A stretch of 64,000 nt of DNA from an uncultured Gammaproteobacteria bacterium (GCA_963797555.1 CAWCPV010000009.1:293049-357048), one strand, 5' to 3'; numbered from the stretch's first letter, positions 13,643 to 49,093 are shown. The notes: a model not told the origin generated them from the sequence alone. Numbers and translations are program-made.

Positions 13643-15918
13643 GTGCCCGTTCGGTTGGGGGTAGTGATCCGGGCAGCCGTGTTTCTGGGAATCGGAGCGT
13701 TGCTCGCCGCCTGCGCCCATGCTCCCGAGACTCCGGCTGTCGAGGGAGTGTCGCGGCCTACCGGCGCAGCCGTGGGTGCGCTGCCGCCTAAGGGCGGCGC
13801 GGGCGCCACGGCGGGAATGACATTGCCTTCGGAGAAGGCGGCCCGGAAGACGGAGAAGCCGCGCGTTTATCAAGGCAGCGGCGTGTTCGTCAAGGCGCCT
13901 GCCCAAGGAGGCCGGTGCGCCCCCCGGGCCAGGCGAAGTCACGCTGAACTTCGAGAATGCCGATCTCAGGGAGGTCGTGAAGGTCATCCTGGGAGACATG
14001 CTGAATCAGAACTATGTCCTCGATCCGCGAGTGAAGGGAGCAGTCACCGTCCAGACGAGCCAGCCCCTCGCCCGCGATGACCTGCTGCCCACCTTGGACA
14101 CCTTGCTGCGCATGAACGGAGCAGCGCTGGTGCGCAGCGGCACCGGCTACCAGGTGGTTCCTTTGGCGGGCGCGTTGCAGGGAACGGTGACCCCGCAGCT
14201 TGCCTTGACGCCCCTGCGGCCCGGATATGGCGTGGTCGTGGTGCCTCTGAAGTACGTCGGGGTGGACGAGATGCAGAAACTGCTGGAGCCGTTCGCACCG
14301 GCCGGGAGCATCGTGCGGGCGGACGAGATGCGCAACCTTCTGGTGCTGGCCGGGACCCGGCAGGAGCTGACGCACTTGGTCGAGACCATCGGGGTCTTCG
14401 ATGTCGACTCGCTGGCGGGGATGTCGGTAGGACTGTTCCCGCTCAAGAGCGTGGAGGCCAAGACCGTCTCCGAGGAGATCGACAAGCTGCTGGGTGCTAA
14501 GGGCGCCGCACCGCTCGCCGGGATGGTGCGGGTGATGCCCATCGAGCGTCTGAATGCGCTGCTCGTGGTGACGCAGCAGCCCAAGTATCTGGATGAGGTC
14601 CGCACCTGGATCGAGCGGCTGGACCGCACCAGCGAGGAGGCGGGCAAGCAGCTTTACGTCTATCAAGTGCAGAATGCCAAGGCCGAGCACCTTGCGGAGG
14701 TCTTGGGCGACCTGTTTGGGGGGCAGAAGGCGAAGCCCGCCGCACCGCGGCCGCCCCAGGTCGCCCCCGGTCTGACGGGGGCGCAGCTCAGCTCCGGGTC
14801 GGCATATATGGAGATGGCGGAACAAGCGACGACGGGGACTCTGGGGACCACCGGGACCATGGGGACCACCGGGACCTTAGGGAGTACGCAGGGGCCTTCC
14901 TTTGGGGCTAGCCGTGGCGGCCAGGCGGGAAAGGGGGGCGGGGCAGGGGGGGTGACGGCGACACAGGCCGGCGAGGTCAGCATCATCGCCGATGCGGAAA
15001 ACAACTCCCTGCTGATCCTGGCGACTGCGGCCGAATACGAAAAGATCGAGGCGGCGCTGCGCAAGCTGGACATCGTGCCGCGCCAGGTGCTGGTGGAGGC
15101 GACCATCGCCGAAGTCACGCTGAGCGGGGACCTGCAGTACGGCTTGCAATGGTTCTTCGACAATAACGTGGGGGCCTACAAGGGTACCGGGGCGCTCGAT
15201 GTCACCAACGGCCTGAAGTTAGCCGACGTGCTGAAGGGTGCGGGCTCAGGCTTCACCTATGCGCTGACCGATGCCAGCGGGTTCGTCAGGCTGTTCCTGA
15301 AAATGCTCGCCGATGAGTCGAGGATCAAGGTACTGTCTTCCCCCCAGCTCATGGTCACCGACAACCAGACCGCCCAGATACGCGTGGGTGACCAGGTGCC
15401 CGTGAACACCGGGGAAACCACTGGCACTGCCGGGACCACCACGAGTTTCCAGTACCGAGACACCGGCGTGCTGCTCCAAGTCACCCCACGGGTCAACGCG
15501 GGCGGGCTGGTCAGCATGGAGGTCAGTCAGGAGGTGAGCATTCCCGGCCCCTCGAGTGGTAACGCCGGGGGGAACCCCACCATCTCGCAACGCAGCATTC
15601 AGAGCAGCGTGGTCGTGCAGAGCGGCGACACCCTGGTGCTGGGCGGCCTCATCCGGGACGAGAACACCACGCTGAAGCAACGGGGTGCCGGGGCTCTACA
15701 AAATGCCGATCATCGGCCCGGTGTTCGGTACCACCATCCATAACAAGATCCGGACCGAGCTGGTCGTGCTCATCACCCCGCGGGTAGTGCGGGACCAGCG
15801 GGAGGCCCAGGAGGTCACCGAAGAGATCAAGCGCAAGCTCCAGGAAGTGATTCCTCCCTCGCAGGAGCACCCCTGGAAGGTCCGAGACGCGGCGGCGAAC
15901 CACTCCGGGGCGAGCTGA
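13643..15918 (+). CDS. gspD: T2SS secretin GspD (lipoprotein type), apparent frameshifts near 13903 and 15678
   Basis: LAAC lipobox, VTLNFENADL, RQVLVEATIAEV, YRDTGVLLQVTP, TELVVLITPRVV across three frames. Confidence 0.9.
14834..14888 (+). repeat. Imperfect 18-bp tandem repeat inside gspD encoding GTLGTTGTMGTTGTLGST
   Basis: gggactctggggaccacc / gggaccatggggaccacc / gggaccttagggagtacg. Confidence 0.7.
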
Positions 15919-16027
15919 CGCGCGAGCGGGCGAAACCTTGTCCGCCCGGCCGTGGTCTCATCCACGGACCACTCGCCGCGTCCGAGCGGTAGCCCGGTCT
16001 GATCACGCTGTGCGCCCAGCGTTCTGA

Positions 16028-16243
16028 GAGCTTGTGAATAAATCTGCTGCGCGTCCCGGTAGCGGCGTTGTGCGGTGTTCATGGCGTACCTCCTGTACGC
16101 CACCCCTTCGGGGCGTCCCGCGGACGTGCCGAATGGCTGTCCTGCCATTCGGTCGCTCCTCGCCTATCTACTGGATATGTCTCGTCGCTGCGCTCCGTAT
16201 GCCTTGCTCTCGGGCCGCTCGCGACGGATTTCTTCACAAGCTC
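16028..16243 (+). mobile_element. MITE copy 1 (142-bp core plus 74-bp nested insert)
   Basis: TIRs GAGCTTGTGAATAAATC / GATTTCTTCACAAGCTC, flanked by direct TGA; near-identical to inverted copy at 53195-53336. Confidence 0.85.
16081..16154. repeat. 74-bp four-hairpin element inserted in MITE
   Basis: Absent from copy 2; stems TGGCGTAC/GTACGCCA, CCCC/GGGG, CGTCC/GGACG, CCGAATGGC/GCCATTCGG. Confidence 0.75.
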
Positions 16244-16279
16244 TGAGTCGACCCGTGCGCAAGCTCGGTCACTGATCCC

Positions 16280-18421
16280 ATGTTAACGCCCGCTGCATCC
16301 GTCACTCCCGCTCGGCCTTTCACGGCTGAGGAAATGGAGGAGCGCTTGGAGGTGTTCCTCGACGCGGTGCTCTCTTCGCGGCGCACCGCGGCAGGACCGG
16401 CCGGGAAGCTGGCCCGCTTCGACCGCCCCCGCCAAGAGCTTGTGCTGAAGTGGGTCGAGATCGTCGGCCGCAGCAACGCCGAGGTTGCTTACCAGTTCGC
16501 CGATCACGTCGCTCATGCCTTCTCCTCGATGAACGAGCAGGCCATCGAGGCATGGGTGGTCCACGCCATGGATGTTTACGACACTCAGGGCTTGCACCCG
16601 GCCGTGGCCGTGCTGCGTGACGCGGAGATCTTCGCCCAGCGGGTGCAGCAGCAGGCCCGCGGGCTCGCCTTCGGGGAAATTGCCGGCGTCCTCTCGCTGT
16701 TCTTGCGCGGACTGAGCGGTCGGGAGCTGAAGCTGGATGCCTCGGACGAGGTCTACACGGACACCGAGACCGTGTTTCTGCCGCCGCTCCTGTGCCGCTT
16801 CGCGGAGCGCGAGGAGAATTTCGCCCTGTACCGCGCCATGGCCGTCCACCTCTGGGCGCAGACCTGGTTCGGGACGTTCCGCCCCGGAATCATCGAGGGT
16901 CTGTCGGCGTTCAGCGACCCAGAGCGGGCGGCGCGCCTGTTCCACGCTCTGGAGACCATGCGCCTCGATGCCTGCCTGGAGCGGGAGCTGCCCGGCGTAC
17001 ACCGCGGCATGGCCCGACTGCGGGCGAGCCTCAGCGAGCCGGCCGTCCCCCCGGGCCTCGAGCGGTTCGAGCCCCGACTGCGGGAGCCTTCCGCCACAGC
17101 GCAGATCAGCCTGGAGATGGTGGCGGACGCCTACCGCATCGCGCTGCCCCCCTCCTTGTCCTACCAGGGGCGGCTGTTGCCGGACCGGGTTGCCGCCGCC
17201 CTGAGAGCGCGCGCGGAACGCGACCAGGGGCTCTTCCAGTCCGCGCTGGCGCGCCTCGCCGCGGAGAAGGACGGCAGGGTCGACCCCACGCAGCTCGCAC
17301 GGGCGGGCCGCTTCAGCGTGGAGATGCGGCCGGACGAGGAGCGGCCCGACGGCATCACCATCGATTCCCGGTTGGACGGCCGGCCGGTCGCGCCGCCGGA
17401 GGAACTCCGCTCCCTGGTGTCCTCCATACTGCAGGACTTCGGCGAGATTCCCGACGAGTATTTGGTGCCTGCCGGTGACGGTGGCTACCGGCCGGCGCGG
17501 GCGGGGAGCGAGCGTGCCGAGGACGTGTGGAAGGGTACTTACCACGAGGAGGGAGCGTTTCTATACAACGAGTGGGACTTCAAGCGCGGCCACTACCGGA
17601 AGAACTGGTGCGTGCTGCGCGAGCTGGACGTGCATCCACAGCAGGACGACTTCGTGTCGCGCACTCTCGAGAAGCATCGCGGGCTGGTCAAGCAACTGCG
17701 CAAGAGCTTCGAGGCCCTGCGCGGCGAGGACAAGATGCTGAAGCGCCAGTCCAACGGCGACGACATCGACATCGATGCCCTGGTGGAAGCTTATGCCGAC
17801 GTGAGGAGCGGCATGGAGCTTACGGACCGCCTGTTCGTGAAGCGCCACAAACTGGACCGGGACATCGCCGTGATGTTCATGGTGGACATGAGCGGCTCCA
17901 CCAAGGGCTGGATCAACGATGCGGAACGCGAGTCGCTGGTTCTGCTGTGCGAGGCCCTGGAGAACTTGGGCGACCGTTATGCCATCTACGGCTTTTCCGG
18001 CATCACGCGCAAGCGCTGCGAGCTCTACCGCATCAAGCGCTTCAAAGAGCCATACAGTGATGCGGTGAAGCACCGCATTGGGGGCATGACGCCGCAGGAT
18101 TATACCCGCATGGGAGTGGTCATCCGCCATCTGAGCCGGCTGCTGAGCGAGGTGGACGCCAAGATCCGGCTGCTCGTAACGTTATCCGACGGCAAGCCCG
18201 ACGACTACGACGGCTACCGGGGCGACTACGGCATCGAGGACACGCGCCAGGCCCTCATCGAGGCCAAGCAGCAGGGCATCCATCCCTTCTGCATCACCAT
18301 CGACAAGGAAGGTCGGGAGTACCTTCCGCACATGTACGGGGCGGTCAACTACGCCCTCGTCGACGAGGTCGGCAAGCTGCCCGTCAAGGTGGGCGACATC
18401 TACCGCCGCCTGACTCGTTGA
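16280..18421 (+). CDS. CbbO/NorD-family VWA-domain activase adaptor
   Basis: YNEWDF...Y...[51 protein letters not shown]. Confidence 0.88.
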
Positions 18422-31232: not shown

Positions 31233-34200
31233 ATGCTCGTCGAACTGCTGAGAAAGCTGGCCGCAACTGGCCATGATGGCTTCGAGGGATTGATTGCAGG
31301 CCTGCTCGAAACCCTCACAGGCCGGCAGTTCCACTTGGCACGTGCGGGTAGCCAGGCCGGACGCGACATGACGGCAGATCGCTCAGGAGCAAGCCTTATA
31401 GCTGTGGAATGCAAGCGATACGGCACGGCGACGAATCTCGACGTACGTGAATTGCTAGGGGAACTGGTGCAAGCAGCAGCTACGATCCCTGATCTCGATC
31501 TATGGGTGCTTGTAACCTCCCGCCCGGTAGACGACCAGCTCATCAGCCCGCTCTGCGATGAAGCCCGCCGTCGGGGCGTCGAGTTCCGCGCCATTGCAGA
31601 CAGTGACGGCGCACCGAGCACATTGAAGGCGCTGTGTGCACAGGACTCCGAGCGCACCCTGGGAATGCTGGCGCCTGGGCTCGCCACCGCCGACCTTGAC
31701 CATCTACGCCGCGAACTGCAGGACATTTCCCATCACACCTCCTTCCGGTCTGTAGTCAGACGCTTGCGGGAGTGGTTTTCGGCCCCGTTCATCGGCTACG
31801 ACCAATGGCGAACGGCGCAGCAGAACGTCTTCCTCCAACGACTGCACGATGAGCCCGAGAGCCGCGCGGCCTTTTACCAGCCGCTGAACGTTATGGCCGG
31901 GGAAGGTGGGTTGGTGGAGCGTCGGGTTGCCTGGACCCGGCTCGACCAGTGGCTCGGTCAGTGGTACTCGACACGCTCCATCCTTGTGCTTACCGGTGAA
32001 GAGGGCGATGGCAAGACTTGGGCGCTTGCCTCCTGGCTCGCGCTGGGCACCAGTGAGCGGCCCGCCTTCCCACCGGTGGTTTTCGTGCCTTCGCCCCACG
32101 CGGATACCACCGACCCGATCAGACTCGTGGCCACCGAGTTGGCACGGTGGCATGGCCAGCCGTATCACGAATTCTGGTGCCGACGCATTGAGCGTTGGCT
32201 GCAGCGTCCAGTGTCGGAGATGCCAATGATGCTCTTGGTGCTCGACGGCATCAACGAGCGTTCCAACTTCACAGTGTGGCGCGCGCTGCTGGAGTGCCTG
32301 CGAACTGGCCCTTCGGCAGAGCGGGTAGCGGTCGTCATCACCTGCCGAGCGCAATACTGGGAGCGCTATTTCGCTGGCCTCGATTATCTCAATACCGATT
32401 CCTGGCTGTTGCCACCCTATGATGACTCCGAGCTTCGGATTGCATTGGCACGACGGCACATGAGCCCCTCCCAATTTTCGGCCGAAATGCTCCGGTTGCT
32501 TCGCAAACCTCGCTATCTGGATCTTGCCATCCGGTATGCAGCGCAACTTCAAGCGAGCGGGGACTTTACGCCAGCGCGCCTGATCTTTGAAGACTGGAGC
32601 GACCGCTATCGGCGCAAGACTCGTCTGTCGTTAAACGACTTCCAGTTCCAAGCGGTACTTCAGGACCTCGCGCGCATTAGGCGAAGCGGGCAGGAAAGCC
32701 TTCGCGACTCCGAAGTTCGCGGCATTCTGCGTGATTATGAGGGCGCCTACGACGAGCTGTGCAGCGGCGGGGTATTGATTGCGGTTGGCCACACTCGGAC
32801 GCGGTACAAGATCGACGAGAGCCGCCTTGCACTGGGCCTCGGCCTGCTGCTAGCCGAGGAAGTGGAGAGAACAGCAGCCGAAATGGGGGATCTGGACGAG
32901 ACCATTGCGCAGTGGCTGGAGCCGCATCGCGAGATGGATCTCAAGGCGCGCATCTGCGAGATGGCAGCGCTGTCGACCCTCCAGCGGGGGGCTTCACAGA
33001 CAGTCTGCGTGGCGCTGCTGCATGCCTGGCTCGAATGCCTCAACTGCGGAGATAGGTTCGACGAGACCTTCCCGCCTATCTGCCGCTATCCCCGCCGACC
33101 TACCTGGCGCTCGCCGAGCGTATCTGGTCCGACGAGAGCGATAACCCCATCGGACAGGAACTTCTGATGCGTGCCCTGTTGCGCTGGCACCAGATCCCGC
33201 GTCTGGAGTCCCTGCTGCCGCCCACATTCGAGCGTTGGCTAGGCTTCGTTCATCCTCAGGGGTTTCCGCTCAAGCGCCCGAGTGGGGGAGACCCCGCCGC
33301 CGACAAGAAGCGGCTAAAGGAAACCCGTACGGAGATTGCGCGCCGCGCCGGCCATGAACTGGAGATGGGCACGCAGATCGAGCGAGCTGGCTGTGCGCTC
33401 ACTGTCATCAACGATGGTGGGCTGCTACGGCTTGGGCGGTTCGCATTGGCGGTCATTTCCCATCTGCCTCGGCGCCCTTACGTGCACGCTCTAGCCGTTG
33501 GCTGTGTTGCCGAAGCGATTATGAACCACCCGGATAAGTATCAGCTTTTCGCATGGACCCTGCGCTCTTCCTCAGAGCCGCTGTGGAGCGCGGTCCACAG
33601 CGAAGTGCAGCGGCTGCTCGCCGACGACAGCCTTGCTGGTCAGCAGGCTGCCCATCGCCTGCTTTCCTTCAACGGCAGCGAAACGGCACATCGCGTCCAA
33701 CAAACACTGCCTGCGGATCTGTTCCCGAAAAATCCTCTGGTAGTGCAGCATGAGCGCGACCCTTGCATCTCGTTTTTTCGCTGGACCAGAACGGATTGCG
33801 AGAAGTGCCTGTCGCGAGCGGACGTCCCGACCCGTCTGCTTGCGGAAAGGCTCGCCCGATTCTGCATAGATCCCGAACTGCCGGTACCCGCTGATCTCGG
33901 TCAGCGGATCGTTCCCCTGGCCCAAAGCATCCCGATCCACGAAGTATGGTCTCAGCTCGGCGTCACTGCAGCGGATCTTGCGATCCGGGATCTGGAGCCA
34001 GCGCTGTGCGCCTATGCCCCGGAGGCATTCGCGGACCTCATGCGCTGCATTGTGCGTGACGCCGCGAGCCGGCGGGATATGCCGCTGCGCCAGCTCTGCT
34101 GGCACTTGGTGGAACATACGCTGCTGTTTGGGCCCGACGAGTGGCGTGCACTGCGCACTGCTTGGGACCGCTTACATCAAACAGCCGGTCCGCTGGCCGA

Positions 34201-35932
34201 ACCCGAGCGCGTCGCCGAGCATCAGCTATTTGAGGTGCTGCTGGAGACGATGACCGCCGAGGAGCAGCTAGACCGGCTATTAGCGCGGCCGGACGAGGCA
34301 TCCGATCTCCTGGCCTTCCAAAGACATTTCGCCGAGATCACCGACTGGCAGACCATTTCCCCACGGTTGACGGAAGGTATGGATACGAAGAGCCTCACCA
34401 GGGTGCTATGGTTCGTCTCCCGCCATCCGGAGCAGATTCCAGCCGGGATCCTTGAGCGCACTGCGGACTATGTCGAGCATGAGGACACAGTGGTCCGCAC
34501 TGCTGCCCTGGACATTCTCTACGGAGCCGGGTCTCCCACTGTCCTGCAAGGTTTCCTTCGAGGGAAATGGGCCTGGGGGACCGCCCGCTGCCGCAGGGAA
34601 AATCACTTGGGAAGCTTGCTGCTGTGTGAGTATGGCGAGGACCTGGCGTATGAGGAGTTGCGCCGAAGAGTCGATCCAGCTTACTTGGGCTATGCCATTC
34701 ACTGCCGGGGTCTGTCAGCTGACGAAGCCCAACAGTACGCCGAGGATGTCCACCGGGTATGGGGATCGTTGTCGACGCCGCAACTACCCGCCCTGCCTCC
34801 GAGCTTTCCCCTGTCGGAAACGGGCTGCGGGGCTGCGGCAGAGGCGCCCGCATTCAACTACATTCACCTCGCGCCCGAAATGCTTCCTCGCCGTTTCGTA
34901 TTCAAGAACCCAGATGCCACATGGGGTGGCGGCGCGCGGTCGACGCCGGATGCCTTCCCGCGTGACTTCTCGCTGGAGGGCGACCGGTTCGTGCAGGACC
35001 AGACCAAAGCGTTGAGCGACGGACTGGAACAGCAGTGGCAAGCGGGTAACACATGGTTCGGCATATGCCTTCCGACTCACGGACTGGATTGGATAGTTGC
35101 GCATCGCCCCGACTTGGTGGAGACCTGGTTGGCGCCAGTGCTGGAAACCGGCCACGCAGCGAGCCGCTTGCTGGCCGTGGCTGCCGGTTTCTACGAGGCG
35201 CTGTGCAAGGTGCTGCTGCGGCAAGCCCCTGAACGAGGTGTCGCTCTATACAGGCGGCTGAAGAAATCGCAGTATCCGGTACGCTTCGTAGCTCAGTGGA
35301 GCGGAACTAGCCTGATCGAGCAGGCGCTGTTCGCTGCCCCGGCACACCCAGCCGTCGAGGTACTGTGGGAAGAGCGGCTGGCGAACTGCTGTACTGACCG
35401 GGAACTGCTGGAGCTAGTGCTGGTAGCCCAGTCTGGTCAGGCGCGTACCTGGCTGTGGTCCGTGATAGCGCGGGGGGTGGTCGCCCCGGTGCCATTCCAG
35501 CAAGCGCAGGTACTCATGCTGCTCGCGTTCATTGACGGTTCACAAGCTGACGACATGCTGAGCCGCTATGTCAAAGCGAGTCCCCAAACCTGGCTTGACC
35601 ACGTGGCTGCTGCAGCGTCTCGGTACCGCCAGAACAATTGCTGGGCGAGACACTGGTATGTCCGATTTCTCGGCACGGCGGACGATATAGCCTCGTGGGC
35701 CGCATTCCGCCTGTTCCTGCGGTGCGTCGATTCGCGGTACTGGTATTGGCGGAGTCCTTCGAGCCCGGACGACAGCACCGATGCCGCATGGAACAGACGC
35801 CTCCATTTCCTGGAGGCCAACAAGGAGGCAATCAAGAGGCACGCCCAAGAGAACGAAAAGCCACTGACGGAGGAGTTTCTAGCTCAAAAAGTGTTGAAGG
35901 GGGATGTGTGGCCGTGGCTAGAGCAGGCGTAA
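31233..35932 (+). CDS. Mrr-like nuclease-STAND NTPase, putative antiviral Avs-like protein (~1570 aa; apparent 1-base deletion near 33072)
   Basis: GFEGL...AGRD...VECKRY PD-(D/E)xK domain; Walker A GEEGDGKT; Walker B LVLDGINE; VVITCR; one extra C at 33071-33073 joins the two ORFs. Confidence 0.78.
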
Positions 35933-35975
35933 TGTGGGTCTGTCAATCAGGCAACGAGACAGCCGGCTGTTCCCG

Positions 35976-36266
35976 TCACGCATCGTCGTAGAAGTTCTGC
36001 CGTGAACCCACGTTCCTGAGCCGGATCCGCCTGTGTTCCCCGTCGACGCTGAAGGAAGGCGATAGTTGCGGCCGAGCCGGCAAGCGTACACGCCTCCGCT
36101 TTTCGCCTTCAGCTTCTTGATCTGGATCTGTGAATCGAAAGGATCTTCTTCCAGCTTCCAGCTTCTTCAGGACCTGCTCAAGCTTGTCCAAGATGTTCAG
36201 GGGAAGCGCCGCAGCCATCTTATCGAAGCGCGGACTTTTTAGGAGTCGCCACTTGTCTTCGGCCAT
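35976..36266 (-). CDS. RelE/ParE-like toxin
   Basis: 96 aa, basic, SPRFDK N-terminus, C-terminal IRLRNVGSRQNFY. Confidence 0.65.
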   Translation of the reverse strand: MAEDKWRLLKSPRFDKMAAALPLNILDKLEQVLKKLEAGRRSFRFTDPDQEAEGEKRRRVRLPARPQLSPSFSVDGEHRRIRLRNVGSRQNFYDDA

Positions 36267-36270
36267 CCAG

Positions 36271-36786
36271 CTAGGGCCTTCTCGCCTTGATAGCGGCAAT
36301 TACAACCTGTGCGCTTCCCTCCGTTAGCTCGTCGTCCAGATCGGCGTCATGCTCCATGATCTCCCAGCGGAGATCCGACGCCGCATCGTGGAGGAGCTTG
36401 AGGGCTTCGATCACGTCGCTGTACGCCTGAACGACCCGGCGCTCATGCTCGCCCACAAGCGCCCGGTCCTGGAAGGCGCTATCTCGCTTTCTCTCAAATT
36501 CCCCGATGGCCTTCCGGAAGACGGATTCGGCGCGTTCGATGCGCCCGACCGTGCTGGCGGAGGGGTCCAGGGGCTGCTCGATATCGCAGCTATGGATGAC
36601 CTCGATCGCCGCCTGGACGCTGTGATGGACCGCCGTGGTGAAGGTACGAAGCCGCGAGAGGAACTGGACGGTTTGCTCCGCAAGCGCCTCGATGGATGGC
36701 GGCGCCTCGAGCATGTCGGCCAGCGAGGCGATGCCGACGTAGGCGCTATTTGTGGCGGCTTCGCTGTATCGCTCTCCACAGCGCAT
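36271..36786 (-). CDS. Acidic helical protein, putative antitoxin
   Basis: Strong RBS (AGGAGG), ends 4 bp before toxin start, acidic C-terminus WEIMEHDADLDDE. Confidence 0.6.
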   Translation of the reverse strand: MRCGERYSEAATNSAYVGIASLADMLEAPPSIEALAEQTVQFLSRLRTFTTAVHHSVQAAIEVIHSCDIEQPLDPSASTVGRIERAESVFRKAIGEFERKRDSAFQDRALVGEHERRVVQAYSDVIEALKLLHDAASDLRWEIMEHDADLDDELTEGSAQVVIAAIKARRP

Positions 36787-37018
36787 GGTTTGTCCTCCTG
36801 GCCATCAACGGGTAGAGCAGTACTATTATGGTTGGAGCACATTAGAATTGCAGTACACGCGGTATATCAAGGGATCTCGCGGGCACGAATGGCCGGCGCG
36901 AAGACAGCGAGCTTGACCTTACACACGACCGGGGCGCGAATAGGGCCACCATACCTGAGCAGGGCAGCACATTTCCTGACGGCATTCGCCAGGCAGGCGC
37001 AGTAAGCCACAATGATCC

Positions 37019-39868
37019 ATGTCTGAAACGCCCGAACAAAAAGCCCGCCGCGGGATCGACGCTGACCTCACGGCCGCCGGTTGGCTGGTGCAGGACCGCG
37101 AGGACATCGACCTCACCGCCGGCCGGGGGATCGCCGTGCGCGAGTTCCCGATGAGGTCCGGCTTCGGTTTCGCGGACTACCTGCTCTATCTGGACCGCAA
37201 GGCGGTGGGCGCGGTGGAGGCCAAGGCGCAGGGCACCCTGACCGGCGTCGAGGAGCAGTCGGCGAAATACGCCGCCGGCCTGCCGGAGAACCTCCCCGCG
37301 CACAAGCGCCCGCTGCCCTTCCTGTTCGAGTCCAACGGTTCGGTGACCTACTTCACGAACGGACTCGACCCCGCGCCGCGCAGCCGCCGCGTGTTCAACT
37401 TCCCGCGCCCGGAAACGCTGGCGGAGTGGGTGGCGCAGCCCGCGCAACTGCGCGCCCGCCTGCAAGGCTTGCCGCCGCTCGACGAGTCGCGGCTGTGGAC
37501 GGTCCAGGCCCGCGCCATTCGTAATCTCGAGGAATCCTTCGCCCGGGGCGACCCGCGCGCCCTCATCCAGATGGCCACCGGCTCGGGCAAGACCTTCACC
37601 GCCGTCAACGTCGCCTATCGGCTGCTCAAGTTCGGCGGCTGCCCGGCGCATCCTGTTCCTGGTGGACCGGGGCAACCTCGGCAGGCAGACCGAGGACGAG
37701 TTCGCCAACTTCGAGCCGCCCGACGACCCGCGCAAGTTCCCGACGCTCTACACCCTCCAGCGGCTCAAGACCAATTCCATCAACCCCGCCGCCAAGGTCG
37801 TCATCACCACCATTCAGCGCCTGTACTCGATGCTGAAGGGCGAGGCCGAGCTCGACGCCGGCAACGAGGAAGGCTCGGGCTTCGATTCCGCCAGGCCCTG
37901 GCAGGGCGAGCCGCCGGAAGTGGTCTACAACGCCGGCATCCCGCCCGAGTTCTTCGACTTCATCATCGTGGACGAGTGTCACCGCTCCATCTACGAGCTG
38001 TGGAGCCAGGTGCTGCTCTATTTCGATGCGTTCCTCGTCGGCCTCACCGCCACGCCCGCCGGCAAGACCATCGGCTTCTTCAATCAGAACCTTGTCATGC
38101 AGTACGGCCACAACGAGGCGGTGACGGACGGCGTGAACGTGGACTTCGACGTCTACCGCATCCGCACCCGCGTCACCGAGCGGGGCGCCACCATCGAGGC
38201 GCGCGATACCGGAGTCTACGTGGACAAGCGGGACAAGCTCACCCGCGCCGAGCGGCTGCAACTGCTCAATCAGGACCTCACCTACACGGCCAACCAGCTC
38301 GACCGCGATGTGGTCTCGGAAAGCCAGATCCGCACTGTGCTCCAGCAGTTCCGGGACAATGTGCTGCCCGACGCCTTCCCGGGCCGCGCGGAGGTGCCCA
38401 AGACCCTGATCTTCGCGAAGGACGACTCCCACGCCGACGACATCGTGCGCCTGGCGCGCGAGGTGTTCGCGGAAGGCAACGAGTTCTGCCAGAAGATCAC
38501 CTACCGCACCGGCTTCACCAAGCGTCACCCAGAAGGTGAGGAACGAGGACGGCACGCGAGTCGGAAGTCACCGAGTGGGTGAGGACCGCGAGCCTCACGC
38601 CGGATGAGATCCTCGCCAACTTCCGCAACAGCTTCTTCCCGCGCATCGCGGTGACCGTGGACATGATCTCGACTGGCACCGACGTGAAGCCCATCGAGTG
38701 CGTGTTCTTCCTGCGCAACGTGAAATCCGCCGGCTTCTTCGAGCAGATGAAGGGGCGCGGCGTGCGCGTGATCTCGCCCGACAAGCTGCGCGTCGTCACT
38801 CCCAGCGCAAAGGTCAAGGACCGCTTCATCATCGTGGACGCCGTGGGCGTGTGCGAGCAGGACAAGACCGACTCCCACACCCTCAACCGCCAGCCTTCCA
38901 AGACTCTGGAAGAAGTCCTCGAATATGTCGCCCAGGGCGGCACCGATCCCGAGGCCCTCACCACCTTGGCCGGCCGGCTGGCCCGCCTCCAGCGCGGGTT
39001 CAGCCGCGAGCAGCTCGCCGAGCTGAAGGACCTCGCGGGCGGCAAGTCCTTCCCCGACCTTGCGCACGACCTCTTGAATGCCTGCGACCCGGACGCGCAG
39101 ATCGAAGCGGCCAAGCAACTGCCCGGCGTCATCGGCCATCCGACCGAAGATCAGGTCAAACAGGGCGCCGAGCAGCTCGCCCAGGCCGCCGTCACGCCCT
39201 TCCTCAAGGCCGCGTTCCGCCGCCGCATCCTGGAAATCCGCCAGCAGAACGAGCAGACTATCGACCGGCATACCATCGACGACGTGCTCTACGCCGGCTT
39301 CGACGCCTCGGCGGTGGAGAAGGCGCAGAAACAAGGTGCAGGACTTCCGCGCCTGGATCGCCGCGCACAAGGACGAGCTCACCGCCCTGCAAGTGCTCTA
39401 CGCCGGCACGCGCCCGCTCAAGCTCTCGCTCAAGGACCTGCGCCAGTTGAAAGACGCGCTCGCCCGCCCGCCGCTCGCCGCCACGCCGGTCCAGCTCTGG
39501 CGCGCGTTCGAGGCGATAGAGACGGACAACGTCAAGGGTCAGAGGCGGCCAGCAACTGGCCGACCTCGTGAATCTCGTGCGCCACGCGCTGATCCCGGCC
39601 TTGACACTGGTGCCCTACCGCGGACGAGCTGCGCGAACGTTATCAAGGCTGGCTGGAGGACCAGGACGCGGACAACGCCTTCACACCCGACCAGCGCGAA
39701 TGGCTCGACCGCATGGCCGAGCATATCGCCACCAGCCTTGCCATCGAGCCCGAGGACTTCGAGACCGGCTGGTTCGGCCAGCATGGCAGCCTCGGCAAGG
39801 CGCACGCGCTGTTCGGGGATACGCTCAGGCCGCTGATGGCGGAACTGAATGAGAGGTTGGCGGCGTGA
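37019..39868 (+). CDS. hsdR: Type I restriction subunit R (about six apparent indels)
   Basis: FADYLL...VEAK nuclease, QMATGSGKT, IIVDECHRS, GLTATP, KTLIFA, QMKGRG across frames. Confidence 0.9.
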
Positions 39869-41452
39869 GTGGGAACGGGCAGGAACTGCCGCCGGGCTGG
39901 GGCTGCCGCCACTCGCTACGTCGCGCACGATGAACCCATCATTGCGATCGATGCGTCATTCAACGACGATGTGCCGAGTGAAATTCGTTCCGATGCGCGC
40001 TGTCGAGGCCGAACGTGGTGGGCCTGTTCGGCCTGAAGCGCGTGCGCTGTCGGCTCGAGGTCAAGAGTGGCGCGATACACGTCGTTCCTCTCGGGCGACG
40101 TGATGTATGGTCGCCAGCGATCACACCGTGTATGGAGAACGGCAAGACGTACCGTTGTCCGGAGTTGCGCCGGACCGGTCTGCTTTCGGTCCACGGAATT
40201 CCATCGTAGTCCGTCCGAGGAAGGTCTTCAGCCGCTATGGTCGAACAGTTCCTGATTTGCCGCATCGACGGTGCGATTCGCTCGCCCAGCGCCAGATGAC
40301 AGGCGGCGTCGGTCAGATGCGTAGTTCCGGCTGCATTTCTAGAAATTCCGGTTCCAATTCCCCTCGCACCGCACTGAACAGTCCCGCATCGCCGACGCCC
40401 TCGACGAACTCTTCTCCGACCTCGACGCGGGCGTGGCGGCGCTGGAGCGGGTGCGGGAGAAGCTAAAGCTCTATCGCGCCTCGGTGCTGAAGGCGGCGGT
40501 GGAAGGGGCGCTCACCGCCGAATGGCGCACGCAACAGCCGCACACCGAGCCCGCCAGCGAACTGCTCAAGCGCATCCTCGCCCAACGCCGCCGCCTCTGG
40601 GAGGAAGAGCAACTCGCCAAGTTCCAGGCCAAGGGCCAGGAGCCGCCCAAGAACTGGAAGGCGAAATACAAGGAGCCCGTGGCGCCGGATACCACCGATC
40701 TGCCAGAGCTGCCGCAGGGGTGGGTAACGGCGAGCATGGATGCACTTACCGTACGGATCACTAGCGGGTCTCGCGACTGGCAGCAGTTCTATGGTGCGGG
40801 CTCGGGAACCTTCATCATGGCCCAAAACGTACGTCCCGGCCGCTTCGATCCAAGCGCTCGCCAAGCGGTCAATCCACCGCCGGGTGATCCAAGCTGCGAG
40901 CGAAGCCTCGTTGAAGTCGACGATCTACTGGTCACCATCGTTGGCGTGAATACCGGGGATGTTTGTCGAGTGCCAACACCGCTTTCCGAGCACTACGTCT
41001 GCCAAAGCGTGGCTCTGATGCGGCCTGTGGATCGTCGCATCGCCAAGTTTCTCGATTACTACTGCAATTCCGGAAGCGGCGCTCAACTCCATTACCGACG
41101 GTACATCTATGGTGCTGGGCGTCCGCACCTAAGCTTCGATCAACTGAAGATGACCCCGGTCCTCTTGCCTGGCCTCGCAGAACAAGAAGCGATTGTTGAA
41201 CTCGTCGAAGACCAGCTCTCCGTCATCGACCACCTCGAAGCCGACTTAGCCGCCAAGCTGAAGTCCACTCAGGCGCTGCGCCAATCCATCCTGCGCCACG
41301 CCTTCACCGGTCAGCTCGTGCCGCAGGACCGGAACGACGAACCGGCCTCGGAACTGCTGAAGCGCATCGCCGCCGAGCGCGAGACCCGCGCCCGCGCGGC
41401 TGTCGTGGCGAAAGGCTCGCCTGGGCGCAAGGGCAGACAGGCGAAACCATGA
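39865..41452 (+). CDS. hsdS: Type I specificity subunit S; first TRD heavily frameshifted
   Basis: ELPPGW start, fragments ITPCMENGK and STEFH, ELFSDLDAGVAALER...SVLKAAVEG, intact TRD2, LRQSILRHAFTGQLVPQD. Confidence 0.88.
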
Positions 41453-41758: not shown

Positions 41759-42034
41759 ATGGAAAAACGACCCGCCGTGTACATCTTGGCGAGTCAACGA
41801 AACGGCACGCTATACATCGGCGTTACCAGCGACCTGGGCAAGCGCGTTTGGGAACACCGGAATAGCCTGGTCTCCGGTTTCACGAAGAAATACGCGGTGC
41901 ATCGTCTCGTCTATTTCGAGATGCACGATGACATGACGTCGGCAATCACGCGGGAAAAGCAGATCAAGAAATGGAACCGCGCCTGGAAACTGGAATTGAT
42001 CGAGAAGGAAAACCCGGAATGGAAAGACCTCTGA
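41759..42034 (+). CDS. Small GIY-YIG nuclease (Ssn-like)
   Basis: VYILAS.RNGTLYIGVTSDL..RVWEH, FTKKY, AITREKQIKKWNRAWK, NPEWKDL. Confidence 0.93.
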   Translation: MEKRPAVYILASQRNGTLYIGVTSDLGKRVWEHRNSLVSGFTKKYAVHRLVYFEMHDDMTSAITREKQIKKWNRAWKLELIEKENPEWKDL

Positions 42035-42188: not shown

Positions 42189-42386
42189 ATGAAAGTCCGC
42201 TACTTCCCCGACACCGATACTCTCTACATCCTGTTCCACGAGGGCGAGATCGCGCAGAGCCGCGACATTGACGACGACACCTTGGTCGAGTTCGACAACG
42301 AGGGCCGCCTGTGCGCCATGACGGTGGAGCACGCACGGGAGCGCGCCGACCTGCCTCACCTCTCGTTCGAACAGATTCCCGCATAG
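42189..42386 (+). CDS. DUF2283 family protein (putative antitoxin)
   Basis: MKVRYFPDTDTLYI...EFDNEGRLCAMTVEHA. Confidence 0.88.
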   Translation: MKVRYFPDTDTLYILFHEGEIAQSRDIDDDTLVEFDNEGRLCAMTVEHARERADLPHLSFEQIPA

Positions 42387-42395
42387 GCACGGCGA

Positions 42396-43895
42396 ATGGA
42401 CGCTTCCCAGATCGGCAAACGCGCCTGGAGCTATGCGGGCGTGTTGCAGGACGCCGGGCTCTCCTGCTTCGAGTACGTGGAGCAGTTGACGCTGCTGCTG
42501 TTTCTCAAGATGGCGGACCAGCTCACCGAGGAGCCTTACAACCGCGCGCCCCTCGTGCCGCCGGGACTGGGCTGGAAGGCGCTGCTGCCGCTGGACGGCG
42601 CGGTGCTGGAGGACCAGTACCGCGCGAGCCTGGAAAAGCTCGGCGTCAAGCCCGGCATGCTGGGCGTGATCTTCAAAGGCGCGCGCTGCGAGATCCACAA
42701 CCCCGCGCTGCTCAAGCAGCTCATCGTCAATCTGCTGGACAAAGTGGACTGGCTGTCGCTGCCGGTGGACGTGAAGGGCACGATCTACGAGGAGTTGCTC
42801 TCGCGCTCGGCACAGGAATCCTCGCGCGGCGCGGGCCAGTATTTCACCCCGCGTCCGGTGATCCAGGCCATGTGCGAGGTGATGCAGCCTACGCCCTCCG
42901 ACCGCATCTGCGACCCGGCGGCGGGCACCGGCGGCTTCCTCTGCAACGCCTACCAGTACGTGCTCGACCGCTTCGAGCGGCACCTCGACCGCGACGAGAA
43001 GCGGGCGCTGCAAGAGGATCTGGTCGAGGGCATGGAGCTGTCGCCCAAGGTCGGGCGCATGTGCGCGATGAACGTCTACCTGCACGGCATCGGCGGCGAC
43101 AAGGTGGTGGTCCGCACCGGCCACGACAGCCTCGCCGCGCCGTGGAGCCGCGAATACTCCATGGTCCTCGCCAATCCGCCGTTCGGGAAGAAGCAGAGCC
43201 TGCTGTTCGTGAACGAGGAGGGCGACACCGAGAAGGAAGACCAGATCGTCGTCCGGGAGGACTTCTGGACCTCGACCAGCAACAAGCAGCTCAACTTCGT
43301 CCAGCACATCTACACGCTGCTGAAGATCGACGGCCGCGCGGCGGTCGTGGTGCCGGACAACGTGCTGTTTGAAGGCGGCGCGGGCGAGAAGGTGCGCAGG
43401 AACCTGCTGCAGAAATGCCGCGTCCACACCCTGCTGCGCCTGCCGACCGGCATCTGGTATTCGCCGGGCGTCAAGGCCAACGTGATCTTCTTCGACAAGA
43501 AGGAAGGCCGCGCCGAGGCGTGGACCGACAAGCTCTGGGTCTACGACCTGCGCACCAACCGGCACTTCACGCTCAAGCAGTCGCCAATCCAGCGCAAGGA
43601 CTTCGACGAGTTCGTCGAGTGCTGCAAGCCGGGCCGGCTCCACGAGCGCAAGCCCACCTGGAGCGAGGATAACCCCGAGGGCCGTTGGCGCTGCTACGAT
43701 TACGAGGACTTGCTCAAGCGCGACAAGCTGAGCCTCGACCTCTTCTGGATCAAGGACCAGAGCCTGACCGATACCGACTCGCTGCCCCCGCCCGACGTCA
43801 TCGCCACCGAGATTGCGGACGACCTCGAAGCGGCGCTGGAGCAGTTCACCAAGATTGCCGCGCGGCTGGGACGCCATGCGGGAGGCGCAACGTGA
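42396..43895 (+). CDS. hsdM: Type I N6-adenine methyltransferase M
   Basis: YVEQLT.LLFLKM, GQYFTPR, DPAAGTGGFL, NPPF, LRLPTG. Confidence 0.95.
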   Translation: MDASQIGKRAWSYAGVLQDAGLSCFEYVEQLTLLLFLKMADQLTEEPYNRAPLVPPGLGWKALLPLDGAVLEDQYRASLEKLGVKPGMLGVIFKGARCEIHNPALLKQLIVNLLDKVDWLSLPVDVKGTIYEELLSRSAQESSRGAGQYFTPRPVIQAMCEVMQPTPSDRICDPAAGTGGFLCNAYQYVLDRFERHLDRDEKRALQEDLVEGMELSPKVGRMCAMNVYLHGIGGDKVVVRTGHDSLAAPWSREYSMVLANPPFGKKQSLLFVNEEGDTEKEDQIVVREDFWTSTSNKQLNFVQHIYTLLKIDGRAAVVVPDNVLFEGGAGEKVRRNLLQKCRVHTLLRLPTGIWYSPGVKANVIFFDKKEGRAEAWTDKLWVYDLRTNRHFTLKQSPIQRKDFDEFVECCKPGRLHERKPTWSEDNPEGRWRCYDYEDLLKRDKLSLDLFWIKDQSLTDTDSLPPPDVIATEIADDLEAALEQFTKIAARLGRHAGGAT

Positions 43896-43965: not shown

Positions 43966-44340
43966 GTGACTAAGCCTGGTTTGCAGGTACCGGACGTTGA
44001 AGTGTTGGGTGGTCCTGCGTTGTTGTCTCCCGAGGAGGCCGGAGCTCGGATCCGCGACTACCTTTCGGGAACCCGTGTCCTGCGCGCCATCCTTTTCGGG
44101 TCATTCGCCCGGGGCCAAGCCGATTCGGAGAGCGACCTCGACTTGCTGCTTATCGAACAAACGGACTCACCGTTTCTGGAGCGTGGGCTGCAGCACTTGC
44201 CGCTCTATCGGCTCGGCGTCGGGGTCGACTTGTTGGTTTACACTCCAGAGGAGTATCAGAGGCTCAAGGAGGACGGAAACCCTCTTATCGAGCGGGTGGA
44301 GAAAGAGGGGATCACGATCTATGCGCGACCCGAAGGCTGA
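43966..44340 (+). CDS. Minimal nucleotidyltransferase (MNT) antitoxin
   Basis: ILFGSFARGQADSESDLDLL, VDLLVYTPEE; start uncertain. Confidence 0.88.
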   Translation: MTKPGLQVPDVEVLGGPALLSPEEAGARIRDYLSGTRVLRAILFGSFARGQADSESDLDLLLIEQTDSPFLERGLQHLPLYRLGVGVDLLVYTPEEYQRLKEDGNPLIERVEKEGITIYARPEG

Positions 44341-44722
44341 ATGTGCGAGATGGCTATCCCAGGCCGAGAACGATCTCGCATTCGCTCGTTATGCATTGGA
44401 CGGCCGCTTCTTCCATCAGGCGTGCTTCCATGCCCAACAGGCGGCGGAAAAGGCGTTGAAGGCGGTGCACTATAACGACGGCGCGAGGGCAGTCCTCGGG
44501 CACTCCGCCGTCGGGTTGCTGGCAAGGCTTCTGAACAGCCATCCCGACCTCGAGAGGGTGCGCGACCTCGCGGCCGAGTTGGATCTCTTCTACATTCCCA
44601 CCCGATATCCGAACGGCTTGGTCGAGGGAACCCCGCACGAGGTGTTTACCCGCGCCCAGGCGGAGCGCGCCGCGAAGGCCGCCGAAAAGCTGATGCTGGC
44701 GGTCAAGAGCGAGATCGGCTGA
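44321..44722 (+). CDS. HEPN domain protein
   Basis: WLSQAENDL, ACFHAQQAAEKALKA, GHS, YIPTRYP; overlaps MNT. Confidence 0.9.
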   Translation: MRDPKAECARWLSQAENDLAFARYALDGRFFHQACFHAQQAAEKALKAVHYNDGARAVLGHSAVGLLARLLNSHPDLERVRDLAAELDLFYIPTRYPNGLVEGTPHEVFTRAQAERAAKAAEKLMLAVKSEIG

Positions 44723-46946: not shown

Positions 46947-48767
46947 TCAGCGGGCGCCCTGGTTCCGGTGGCTCTGCCGGGCGTCCTCGGGTGAGCAGAA
47001 CAGTCGCCTGTCTCGTTGGGACAACCCGTGACCGGGCGCCTTCTCCACCAGTCGATAGGGAGGAAGGGGCGGCAGGGGCGGCGGCGTGCGGGAGCATCCG
47101 GGGTCTGCGGCATCGATGAGCCCGTCGAAATCGTCGTCCATGCCATCGGAGCACGCCGTCGGGGAGTCGTGCGACTCCGGGTCCGGCCGTCCCACGAGCC
47201 ATTTGTCCGGGATCGAGCGCCACAGCCGCTCGAAGAAACGCTCGACGCGGGCGGCGACGTTGCGGCTGTCCACAATCAGCACGTTCTCGTCGTTCTCCTT
47301 GTCTCCCGCGCGGGTCCAGTTCATCGACCCGAGCACGGTGAAGCGGCCGTCGACCACGGCCGTCTTCATGTGCATCTTCCCGCCCCAGTTCTCCACCTTG
47401 ACCGGGATGCCGGCGGCGCGCAGCAGCTCGTGCTTGCTATAGCCGTTGACGGCGCTCGTCGCGTCGACGATCACGCGGACGCGCACGCCGCGGCGGGCGG
47501 CCTGGATGATCTCGCGGGCGAGCGCCTGGTGGGTGAGAAAGAACATCGCGACACTGATCGATTGTCTCGCTCCCTGCAGCAGCGGCAGCAGCTCGCGCTC
47601 TACCACGTCCCCCTGAGGGGAGAAGGCGAGTCTCGCCGAGGTCCCGTCCCCGAAGCGCACGTGCAGGCTCTCCCGGACGTGCGCTGCCTTCTCCCGGTGA
47701 AACCGCCCCCGGCTGTACATCTCATCGAATTCATCGGCGTACCACTGGGCGACCGGCTCGGAGTCGATGACGGCCACGGCGTTGGCATGGTAGCCTCCCG
47801 TTCCCGAGTCGCTCACGTTCGCCGAGCCGGTCCATACGTACCGACCGTCGAAGACGAAGAACTTGTGGTGCATGACGTTGCCCTCGAACACCGCGGGCTC
47901 CAGGCTGGCTTGACCGGCCAGAAGGCAGCGAGTGCCGAGGTCGTAGCCCACGCACTGGAGCGGCCCCCGAAAACCCGCGGGACGCTCGCACCAGGGTCGG
48001 GACTTGTTGTGTTCGGGGCGTGCGCGCTCGGAGGCCTCGAGGTCTTGGAGGTAGTCCGTGCGCACCGTGCCGATGGCGGCGATGAGGGCATCCGTATCGC
48101 GATAATAGCTCTGGTTCCGGATGTCCTTGTCCACCACACCCCGGACGCGCACGCCGCGCTGTTTCGCCTCGACCAGGGCGTTCAGAATCGCGGGCTGGGC
48201 CCGCAGGCCGTAGATCGCGAAGTCGATGGTCCGCCTCGCCCCGTTGATCAGGCGAAGCAGTTCCCGGCAGATGTCGGCCTTGCACTCCTGGGAGGGACCT
48301 CGTGCCTTCAGGGGCGAATTCAGCAGCACCTTCAGCGAGCCGACTGTTCGGGTCCGTTCGGAGCGGGATGGCTTACCTCGGTAGGCGGCGTCTTTCAGCG
48401 CGATCTGGTCGGGTGTCCGAGCCACGATCTCTGGTCTGCCTTTGTACGCGTCGACCCGGCCGATGACGCAGATGTTCTTGCCCTTGTACAGCGACACGGG
48501 CGGACCTGGAAAAGCGGGCTGATCGCGACCGAAGATGACGACCGTGAAGGTCTCGTTCGGATGCGGCTTGCCCATGTCGAGGAACATGGGCTCTCCGCGG
48601 CTGTGTTGCGCGTGGTAAGTGTCGACCACGGTTCCACACACCGTCCGCATCTCGCCGACATGACGGCGGGCCTCCGCCGCACTCGTCAGCTCTGCGGCGA
48701 GCGGAGAACGGGCGGCAAGGGCCGTGCAGACGAGCCCGAGGGCGAGAATGTATCGTCCGGAGATCAA
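46947..48767 (-). CDS. Secreted phospholipase D-family (Nuc-like) protein with N-terminal OB fold
   Basis: Signal peptide; HHKFFVFD...TGSAN and HMKTAVVD...GSMN HKD motifs; CSDGMDDDFDGLIDAADPGC motif. Confidence 0.85.
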   Translation of the reverse strand: MISGRYILALGLVCTALAARSPLAAELTSAAEARRHVGEMRTVCGTVVDTYHAQHSRGEPMFLDMGKPHPNETFTVVIFGRDQPAFPGPPVSLYKGKNICVIGRVDAYKGRPEIVARTPDQIALKDAAYRGKPSRSERTRTVGSLKVLLNSPLKARGPSQECKADICRELLRLINGARRTIDFAIYGLRAQPAILNALVEAKQRGVRVRGVVDKDIRNQSYYRDTDALIAAIGTVRTDYLQDLEASERARPEHNKSRPWCERPAGFRGPLQCVGYDLGTRCLLAGQASLEPAVFEGNVMHHKFFVFDGRYVWTGSANVSDSGTGGYHANAVAVIDSEPVAQWYADEFDEMYSRGRFHREKAAHVRESLHVRFGDGTSARLAFSPQGDVVERELLPLLQGARQSISVAMFFLTHQALAREIIQAARRGVRVRVIVDATSAVNGYSKHELLRAAGIPVKVENWGGKMHMKTAVVDGRFTVLGSMNWTRAGDKENDENVLIVDSRNVAARVERFFERLWRSIPDKWLVGRPDPESHDSPTACSDGMDDDFDGLIDAADPGCSRTPPPLPPLPPYRLVEKAPGHGLSQRDRRLFCSPEDARQSHRNQGAR

Positions 48768-49093
48768 GCTGCACCAGAGCCTGGCTGTCTTCGCAACAGG
48801 TAGCTGTGGAACGAGGTCCCGGGAAGACCCATGGTATCCGTTCGGGCCCGCGCCTTACGAGCGCATTCGGCCATGCCGTTCGCCGCGGGCTGCGGCGGTC
48901 GTCACAGAAATGTTACGTTTCCGTGAAGCCGGCGTGACCGGCCGCGACCATCATGTTCGCGGAGGAGGGCCGTGAACGGGCGCGGTCCCCGCGGTCGTGG
49001 GGCGGCCGCAGCGCAGCCGCCGCTAGCCGGCAGGCGGTGCGGGGACGCAGTATCCGCCCGTTCTTTCAAGCGCGAGGGATAGAGGGTCGAATC

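Follow-up and report, generated by a model that had tools for sequence, protein, structure and literature searches.

The described proteins closest in design to the gene analysed here are nuclease-bearing STAND proteins. In Avs4 (EcAvs4; PDB 8DGF, with the phage portal bound), an Mrr-type N-terminal nuclease is followed by a STAND NTPase and a TPR sensor, in chains of 1,534–1,541 residues. According to the accessible part of a 2026 report (10.64898/2026.08.25.746987), the effector domains of Avs4 (Mrr) and of Avs3 and Avs7 (Cap4 or Mrr) form two active dimers in the trigger-bound tetramer. A second group, clade 6 in the accessible text of Kibby et al., comprises bNACHT25 and bNACHT32 and has the order PD-(D/E)xK DNase, NACHT, NCH1; the D48A mutant of the bNACHT25 effector loses both toxicity and defence, and this protein is described as sensing phage via the host protein DnaJ (PMC12169576, available sections). 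Here we describe a gene at positions 31233–35932 of a 64,000-nucleotide stretch of DNA, hereafter the window, from an uncultured Gammaproteobacteria bacterium (GCA_963797555.1 CAWCPV010000009.1:293049-357048). It shows the three-part order of Avs4, with the same type of N-terminal nuclease and a similar size (~1,565 aa), and we put at about 0.7 the probability that it encodes an NLR-like antiviral STAND protein of the Avs/bNACHT kind, mode of action included. This estimate does not extend to the reality of the lesion that interrupts the gene, which is weighed separately.

One gene in two reading frames

The locus consists of two open reading frames (ORFs) on the plus strand, 31233..33167 (644 aa, P0001) and 33167..35932 (921 aa, P0002), which overlap by one base in the sequence TGATG. 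The original prediction had joined them by restoring one C in a C-run, and this reconstruction is borne out. When the full-length homologue P0006 was aligned with the window by tblastn, two high-scoring segment pairs (HSPs) in different frames were obtained, which abut with zero residues lost: P0006 residues 5–617 end at 33071 and residues 616–1561 begin at 33065. At the break the DNA reads TTC (33069–71, Phe), CC (33072–73), GCC (33074–76, Ala) and TAT (Tyr), beside a CCC run, while the homologues read F-x-A-Y-(L/F)-P at this position; therefore, a single codon is short of exactly one nucleotide. An independent genome-wide scan of codon score and codon usage placed a frame junction at 33071/33064. 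Upstream of its start codon, the second ORF stays open back to 33056, so that both frames overlap over 33056–33167. Full-length relatives of ~1,550 aa span all of P0002 at 33–42% identity, and this ORF matches between 54 (word-indexed search) and 972 (exhaustive search) database clusters, mostly ~1,550-aa single proteins, which means that it is not a chance reading frame. These results confirm that 31233–35932 is one gene of ~1,565 codons and that the two ORFs are its halves. Its parts, with the evidence for each, are as follows.

31233..33071, plus strand: 5′ part of the gene in the original frame, residues 1–613, with nuclease, NTPase and helical/winged-helix domains (tblastn HSP, AlphaFold2 (AF2) model)
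31233..31610, plus strand: Mrr-type PD-(D/E)xK nuclease domain, about residues 1–125 (Pfam Mrr_cat, invariant residues, modelled alpha/beta core)
31920..32462, plus strand: NACHT-like STAND NTPase core, about residues 230–410 (weak Pfam matches, invariant residues, Foldseek)
33072..33073, plus strand: frame break, two-base codon CC, where a -1 frame change is required to continue (sequence, frames, tblastn, codon score)
33072..33167, plus strand: out-of-frame tail of the first ORF, 31 codons and TGA (no counterpart in homologues; predicted local distance difference test score (pLDDT) below 50 at residues 607–644)
33074..35932, plus strand: 3′ part of the gene in the shifted frame, predicted ~950-aa HEAT-like alpha-solenoid sensor (open frame, tblastn, AF2)

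The translation of the out-of-frame tail begins PPICRYPRRPTWRSPS, and in the 3′ part the earliest in-frame start codon comes only at 33167. Because one nucleotide is missing at 33072–33073, the gene as assembled cannot make the full protein: the nuclease and the NTPase, in the first ORF, are separated from the sensor in the second.

The nuclease and Walker motifs named in the original prediction are all present, and an alignment of 37 sequences shows no variation at their key residues. Pfam Mrr_cat matches residues 14–96 with 22.4 bits against a cut-off of 21, and the catalytic site comprises D45 (31365–31367, motif QAGRD) and E59-x-K61 (31407–31415, motif VECKRY); the invariant positions of the domain are E18, G39, Q41, G43, D45, E59 and K61. 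The Asp mutated in bNACHT25 is reported as D48; the invariant Asp of the present family is D48 when numbered on P0006 and D45 when numbered on the window protein. As in tripartite antiviral STAND proteins, the effector position is thus held by a conserved Mrr-type domain, and relatives carry CHAT, TIR or EAD domains there instead.

The middle part of the protein is a NACHT-like STAND NTPase. It contains a Walker A motif, GEEGDGKT (residues 255–262, at 31995–32018), and a Walker B motif, LVLDGINE (residues 335–342, at 32235–32258), with G255, G258, G260, K261, D338, G339, N341 and R372 invariant across the alignment. Weak matches to Pfam AAA_22, NACHT and nSTAND1 lie over residues 247–406; for NACHT (PF05729) the window protein scores 19.3 bits against a cut-off of 26.7, and P0006 32.5 bits. 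Among 29 full-length homologues, NACHT (E ≤ 0.01) is found in 17 and Mrr_cat in 7. The AF2 model of the N-terminal half, built on the family alignment, has a pLDDT of 83.6, with confidence collapsing in the out-of-frame tail, past residue 607. In Foldseek, this model is matched best by Avs4 bound to the portal (8dgf; E 7e-8, 633 columns), followed by CED-4, NOD2, Apaf-1 and NLRC4. Invariant residues and Foldseek thus agree on a central STAND P-loop NTPase in which the Walker motifs are followed by helical/winged-helix domains.

The C-terminus is modelled as a ~950-aa HEAT-like alpha-solenoid, presumably the sensor, and is outside the families described in Pfam, PADLOC 2.0, NCBIfam and the PDB, as the original prediction had anticipated when it left this helical region unassigned. 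The AF2 model of the 921-aa C-terminal ORF is an all-helical repeat solenoid (pLDDT 88.5, predicted template modelling score 0.88), and searches with this ORF (~920 aa) gave no Pfam, PADLOC or NCBIfam match. The model matches only generic HEAT/ARM solenoids, with Foldseek TM-scores up to 0.26; in a wide VIA search the best Z was 7.6, with none of at least 8, and no Avs chain is present among the 50 listed matches of either structure search. A search of the ESM Atlas returned only unnamed or HEAT-like leads with low recognition. Overall, the AF2 model and the HEAT/ARM matches point to a large C-terminal repeat sensor, well above the 400 aa taken as the minimum for such a domain, and the effector-NTPase-sensor layout proposed for a single gene agrees with both the domain matches and the models.

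Avs2 (AVAST type 2, PDB 9O4E) is the sole defence family whose hidden Markov models (HMMs) touch the family of the window gene. The PADLOC Avs2 models match 5 of the 29 homologues (best 1.8e-13) and the NCBIfam model one of 29, and no other defence model matches; on the window protein itself, PADLOC Avs2 scores 14.5 bits, aligning residues 248–377 with profile positions 344–466 of 1504. Likewise, the family sequence profile has no significant match to any solved structure, the nearest being the NTPase core of Avs2 (9o4e, E 0.032), which reads DAINE where the family has DGINE. The likeness is thus confined to ~130 NTPase residues, with the sensor and the N-terminus unmatched. Membership of Avs2 was rejected, since the models PDLC02163-5 and NF041813 are matched in the NTPase core only and not over their full length. 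The full-length match to a characterised Avs family for which the original prediction had allowed did not emerge, these weak Avs2 NTPase matches being all that PADLOC and NCBIfam gave. The identity to Avs4 is 13–14%, with no sequence-profile match, and no Avs4 model appears among the PADLOC and NCBIfam matches of the window ORFs and the 29 homologues, in libraries whose Avs4 content was unchecked. The bNACHT25/bNACHT32 proteins, compared by description only (accessible text of Kibby et al.), agree in domain order and in a helical C-terminus.

Spread, architectures and neighbours of the family

An exhaustive search with the sensor, clustered at 50% identity, returned 972 representatives at E ≤ 1e-3, 634 at E ≤ 1e-10 and 274 at E ≤ 1e-30. 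In the genome collection we located 55 loci, distributed over Desulfobacterota, Chloroflexota, Cyanobacteria, Acidobacteriota, Alpha-, Beta- and Gammaproteobacteria and one Halanaerobacter. The gene is a single ORF of 1,484–1,600 aa at 42 of the 55 loci, is cut at a contig end at 6, and is broken or truncated at 7 (L012, L026, L028, L029, L035, L045 and L050). Relatives also occur on 12 plasmid records, where they are annotated as 'NACHT domain-containing protein' or as hypothetical. The phage records searched contain no relative of the sensor, and the gene is absent from the 60 nearest genomes, which are related only at class level, so that no orthologue was available for a comparison at the DNA level.

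The architecture of the family varies at the N-terminus. Among the matches listed (150 of the 972 representatives), the Mrr domain is replaced by CHAT in P0065, P0067, P0072 and P0077 and by EAD1 or EAD10 in P0030 and P0039, while in P0074, P0091 and P0092 a TIR_2 domain is joined straight to the sensor (P0006-equivalent ~591–1560), without a STAND NTPase. Effector swapping is described as typical of immune STAND families in the accessible part of PMC13581612. In the TIR-sensor form the family resembles in architecture, not in sequence or structure, the Avs7/Dsr1 pair, which is described as one sensor with and without a STAND NTPase; in Dsr1 the partner domain is SIR2. The representatives also include sensor-only ORFs of 890–970 aa (P0071, P0130, P0164, P0171 and P0173). 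Seven further representatives (P0068, P0070, P0111, P0132, P0152, P0159 and P0188) start at P0006-equivalent 433–453, before the motif ...GDxTxxRLIYEDWRDR; this shared start may reflect genes that are naturally divided in two behind the NTPase core, or an artefact of gene calling.

To describe the gene neighbourhoods, ORFs of at least 100 aa, the nearest two to either side of the gene, were collected at 41 of the 55 loci (150 ORFs), leaving out nine near-duplicates (L009, L025, L036, L040, L042, L046, L048, L049 and L052) and five short contigs (L018, L020, L032, L037 and L054). Domains were scanned in 130 ORFs of 36 loci, with L050, L051, L053, L055 and L056 dropped. Defence-type domains were found among the four nearest ORFs at 15 of the 36 loci, as listed below.

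L002: AAA_21 with DUF4276, methylase, GmrSD
L003: JetD
L012: caspase
L015: CHAT-TPR, twice
L019, L023, L026, L030: MmeI-type
L022: Eco57I-type
L029: KAP with DEAD/MZB
L033, L034: ThsB-TIR
L041: PIN, AAA_21 with RloB
L044: SIR2_2
L047: AAA_21

Integrase, transposase or relaxase neighbours occur at 6 further loci (L005, L010, L016, L024, L027 and L039), and the neighbours at the remaining 15 are housekeeping or uninformative. A Sphingobium plasmid copy lies between vapBC and a pair formed by an AAA ATPase and RloB, with an integrase nearby. For comparison, the accessible part of PMC13581612 gives a null of 1.5% for a gene to lie within 5 kb of a defence system. The association with defence islands foreseen in the original prediction is therefore observed at 15 of 36 loci against this published null, a comparison made with no matched control of the same loci. 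Some homologues have further giant proteins of conflict type as neighbours: at L010 a 1,542-aa HEAT_2 protein (L010:14481-19109, plus strand) is encoded directly downstream, and at L015 TPR-CHAT proteins (L015:6618-9398 and 14832-17921, plus strand) lie on both sides.

The unity of the gene, the order of its domains, the conserved catalytic residues, the similarity of fold, the swapping of effectors and the defence neighbourhoods of its relatives are the observations on which the identification as an antiviral STAND protein rests. Several points weigh against it. The Walker B motif reads DGINE, with an invariant N where the NACHT signature D[GAS]hDE has a D, a difference that also counts in the comparison with bNACHT25 and bNACHT32. 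The Foldseek TM-score to Avs4 is low (0.30), with several domains aligned at once. No sequence model of a characterised Avs matches over its full length in PADLOC or NCBIfam. L019, L023 and L030 are related lineages sharing their context and are not independent, in a count of 15/36 that has no matched control. Finally, the literature searches, which were not aimed at this family specifically, found no experiment on any of its members.

By analogy with Avs4, for which sensor binding is presumed to lead to oligomerisation and this to nuclease activation (in the published account as far as accessible), and with bNACHT25, the protein may act as follows. The C-terminal ~950-aa HEAT-like solenoid would bind either a conserved protein of the phage or a host protein that the phage perturbs, and ligand binding would relieve the autoinhibition of the NACHT-like NTPase. 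In its ATP-bound state, the NTPase would drive oligomerisation, which would pair the N-terminal Mrr-type PD-(D/E)xK domains into active dimers able to cut DNA indiscriminately. Such cleavage would halt the phage and in most cases sacrifice the cell as well. Every step of this scheme, from the binding of the trigger through oligomerisation and DNA cleavage to protection against phage, is predicted from better described proteins of similar design.

A decaying defence island and the origin of the frame break

In the window, the GC content drops from ~0.67–0.70 to 0.62–0.66 across roughly 30–46 kb. Upstream of the STAND gene lie ruvB, the tol-pal genes, queE, queC and a GspF-like gene; downstream, the following features were identified.

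37019..39868, plus strand: type I hsdR in at least 5 frame segments (NCBIfam/PADLOC pieces in 3 ORFs span successive parts of the HsdR profile)
40433..41452, plus strand: hsdS without the N-terminal ~200 profile positions (PADLOC Specificity_I, residues 3–334 = profile 199–536 of 591)
41759..42034, plus strand: GIY-YIG nuclease ORF (E 2.7e-16)
42189..42386, plus strand: DUF2283 ORF (E 2.8e-17)
42396..43895, plus strand: hsdM, intact (PADLOC MTase_I E 1.1e-167, residues 1–494 = profile 1–480 of 487)
43997..44722, plus strand: HEPN-domain ORF downstream of hsdM (Pfam HEPN E 4.6e-25, residues 118–237)
46947..48767, minus strand: PLD/DrmC-like gene, 606 aa, with two PLD/HKD domains, at the far edge of the low-GC region (DrmC/NucT-type models, best 1.5e-23)

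The hsdR gene is heavily interrupted. A plot of GC content at third codon positions (GC3) switches frame at ~37600, ~38480, ~39250 and ~39500, with GC3 of ~0.9 inside each segment; the EcoEI_R_C piece is found at 39713–39868, and against the sequences of the PDB the HsdR pieces gave only one weak match. Upstream of hsdS, the interval 39869–40432 contains stops in all plus-strand frames and shows no GC3 signal, and the first target-recognition domain of hsdS seems to be lost or degraded. A broken hsdR beside an intact hsdM is the classic pattern of restriction lost and methylation kept. Overall, the STAND gene sits in a decaying defence island: it is itself frameshifted, hsdR is broken and hsdS truncated, and hsdM is intact.

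The original prediction had placed the gene beside restriction-modification (RM) and toxin-antitoxin genes. The type I RM genes, the HEPN ORF and the DUF2283 ORF do adjoin it, but no classical toxin-antitoxin pair could be shown: the GIY-YIG, DUF2283 and HEPN ORFs are interleaved with the RM genes, and no partner antitoxin or nucleotidyltransferase was identified for them. The island is marked neither by a tRNA nor by an integrase, the whole window containing no tRNA, and a scan for promoters and terminators found no more of them than in shuffled sequences. Two other long ORFs of the window lie on the plus strand: a 949-aa ORF (48953–51802) with only glycoside-hydrolase-like Pfam matches (MGH1-like, GH63 C-terminal), and a 713-aa ORF (16280–18421) with no NCBIfam match. 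Elsewhere in the genome (G000:C4:511393-516981, minus strand), one 1,928-aa open frame holds two tandem UvrA-like copies (profile positions 2–924, and 2–286 plus 402–924).

The missing base is probably a real and recent frameshift. In the window, the NCBIfam profiles of eleven housekeeping genes are matched over their full length, and uvrA is unbroken. In the 5.35 Mb assembly, the codon-score scan found no more than 77 frameshift-like junctions under strict and 184 under relaxed criteria. Of the relaxed set, three fall within the 8.6 kb from 31233 to 39836, and the candidate junctions are not enriched in long homopolymers. Other findings speak against a real but old pseudogene. At columns conserved in at least 90% of sequences, the window copy departs at 1 of 92 in the N part and at 0 of 77 in the C part, while the median intact homologue departs at 3.3% and 3.8%; with fewer departures than the median intact homologue, the lesion must be either very recent or an artefact. 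The assembly itself is a draft of 20 contigs and 84.6% completeness, in which models for rpoB and rpoC find nothing. Two small-share soil-metagenome runs gave pieces at 32640–32790 and 33254–33449, and none over 33056–33167.

It is possible, if somewhat doubtful, that the base was lost by an assembly or consensus error and that the organism has an intact, functional gene of ~1,565 aa. The lesion is a single one in 4.7 kb, all invariant residues are kept and most intact homologues depart more often from the conserved columns, in a draft genome of the incomplete kind just described. In metagenome-derived genomes, island regions can have low or mixed coverage, which speaks in the same direction. 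Broken copies are also not rare in such assemblies, as L012, another metagenome bin, shows 5 frame pieces. Set against this are the genome-wide rarity of strict frameshift-like junctions, their lack of ties to long homopolymers (the break site is merely a CCC run) and the full-length housekeeping genes around it. Furthermore, the adjacent hsdR, with at least 4 frame switches, and the hsdS lacking a third of its profile fit a local decay.

A functional split, with two polypeptides coupled at TGATG and cooperating, or a ribosome that shifts to the -1 frame, is very improbable. The TGATG overlap at 33165–33169 is preceded by AGGA 7 nt upstream, five sensor-only ORFs and seven representatives with the shared start at 433–453 are known in the family, and the TIR-sensor proteins suggest from their sequences that the sensor could work without fusion to the NTPase. 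However, homology passes straight through the break with no residue lost, which is the mark of a fresh frameshift and not of an evolved boundary, and a product started at 33167 would be without 31 residues, including the nearly invariant Y, E and W of AYxPxxPxxYxxLAExVWSD. Many of the sensor-only ORFs may moreover be artefacts of contig ends or frameshifts. Other broken copies are interrupted at different positions: the breaks that could be placed, in L012, L026, L029, L035 and L050, lie at P0006 residues ~425, ~590, ~969, ~1230 and ~1470, not at the site of the window copy, and a recurrent split site was rejected on the ground that these five sit elsewhere in the gene. Programmed frameshifting was rejected as well, as no X XXY YYZ slippery heptamer is present at 33066–33074.

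Very improbable as well is a non-defence STAND NTPase, such as a signal-transduction or regulatory ATPase whose Mrr-like domain would serve DNA binding and not killing: defence and non-defence clades are interspersed in the 2026 phylogeny as far as accessible (PMC13581612), at 21 of the 36 loci none of the four nearest ORFs is of defence type, and several loci (L007, L022, L028) have housekeeping genes alongside, but the nuclease keeps its catalytic D, E and K without exception, the alternative N-termini CHAT, TIR and EAD are all domains of conflict systems, the 15 of 36 loci with defence-type neighbours are far above the 1.5% null of the same source, and the distribution is sporadic, with 55 loci over many phyla and carriage on plasmids.

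What the family adds to known STAND receptors

With an antiviral STAND protein as the favoured identity, and a real frameshift as the probable origin of its break, the reading of the locus as a defence receptor stands at the level of the family, whose architecture and context agree with it; for the window copy it is weakened, since the gene is interrupted in the assembly and the RM genes next to it have decayed. To call the receptor new, as was originally done, is too strong, the combination of Mrr, STAND and helical sensor being that of Avs4 and of bNACHT25. The kind is well known, and NCBI already annotates members of the family as 'NACHT domain-containing protein'; the family as such is uncaptured by PADLOC 2.0 and NCBIfam.

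A 2026 survey (Lee et al., PMC13581612), in its accessible part, describes 684 sensor clusters and 589 STAND clades. The present family is very probably one of these clades, because Mrr-carrying STANDs served as seeds and NCBI nr, which holds members of the family, was searched. In the smaller supplementary files of this survey four family motifs and names were not found, Supplementary Tables 2–6 lying outside the search, and no paper on the family came up in literature searches that were not aimed specifically at it. The genera from which Avs8-21 proteins were tested, according to the accessible part of PMC13581612, are not represented among the 55 loci, and on this ground the balance tips slightly towards the trigger of the family being still uncharacterised. 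In the HMM searches the sensor matched no Avs1-5 model, and no solved Avs sensor was among the structure matches listed. We give close to an even chance, though not quite that, to the proposal that the HEAT-like solenoid defines a functionally uncharacterised Avs family whose trigger protein would be new to bacterial pattern-recognition receptors and whose sensor is also wired to TIR.

What the finding chiefly records for the genome studied here is the decay of a defence island. For the family, its interest lies in a mid-sized group present in Cyanobacteria, Chloroflexota, Desulfobacterota, Acidobacteriota and Proteobacteria as well as on plasmids, which PADLOC 2.0 and NCBIfam miss. Characterised Avs families each recognise one conserved phage protein by its shape, so that uncharacterised sensors are an obvious source of the remaining triggers. 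The effector swaps between Mrr, CHAT, EAD and TIR, together with the TIR-sensor form, make the family a usable model for one sensor coupled to different outputs. If the proposal above is true, the family would add to Avs7/Dsr1 a second natural example in which one sensor serves immunity both with and without an NTPase.

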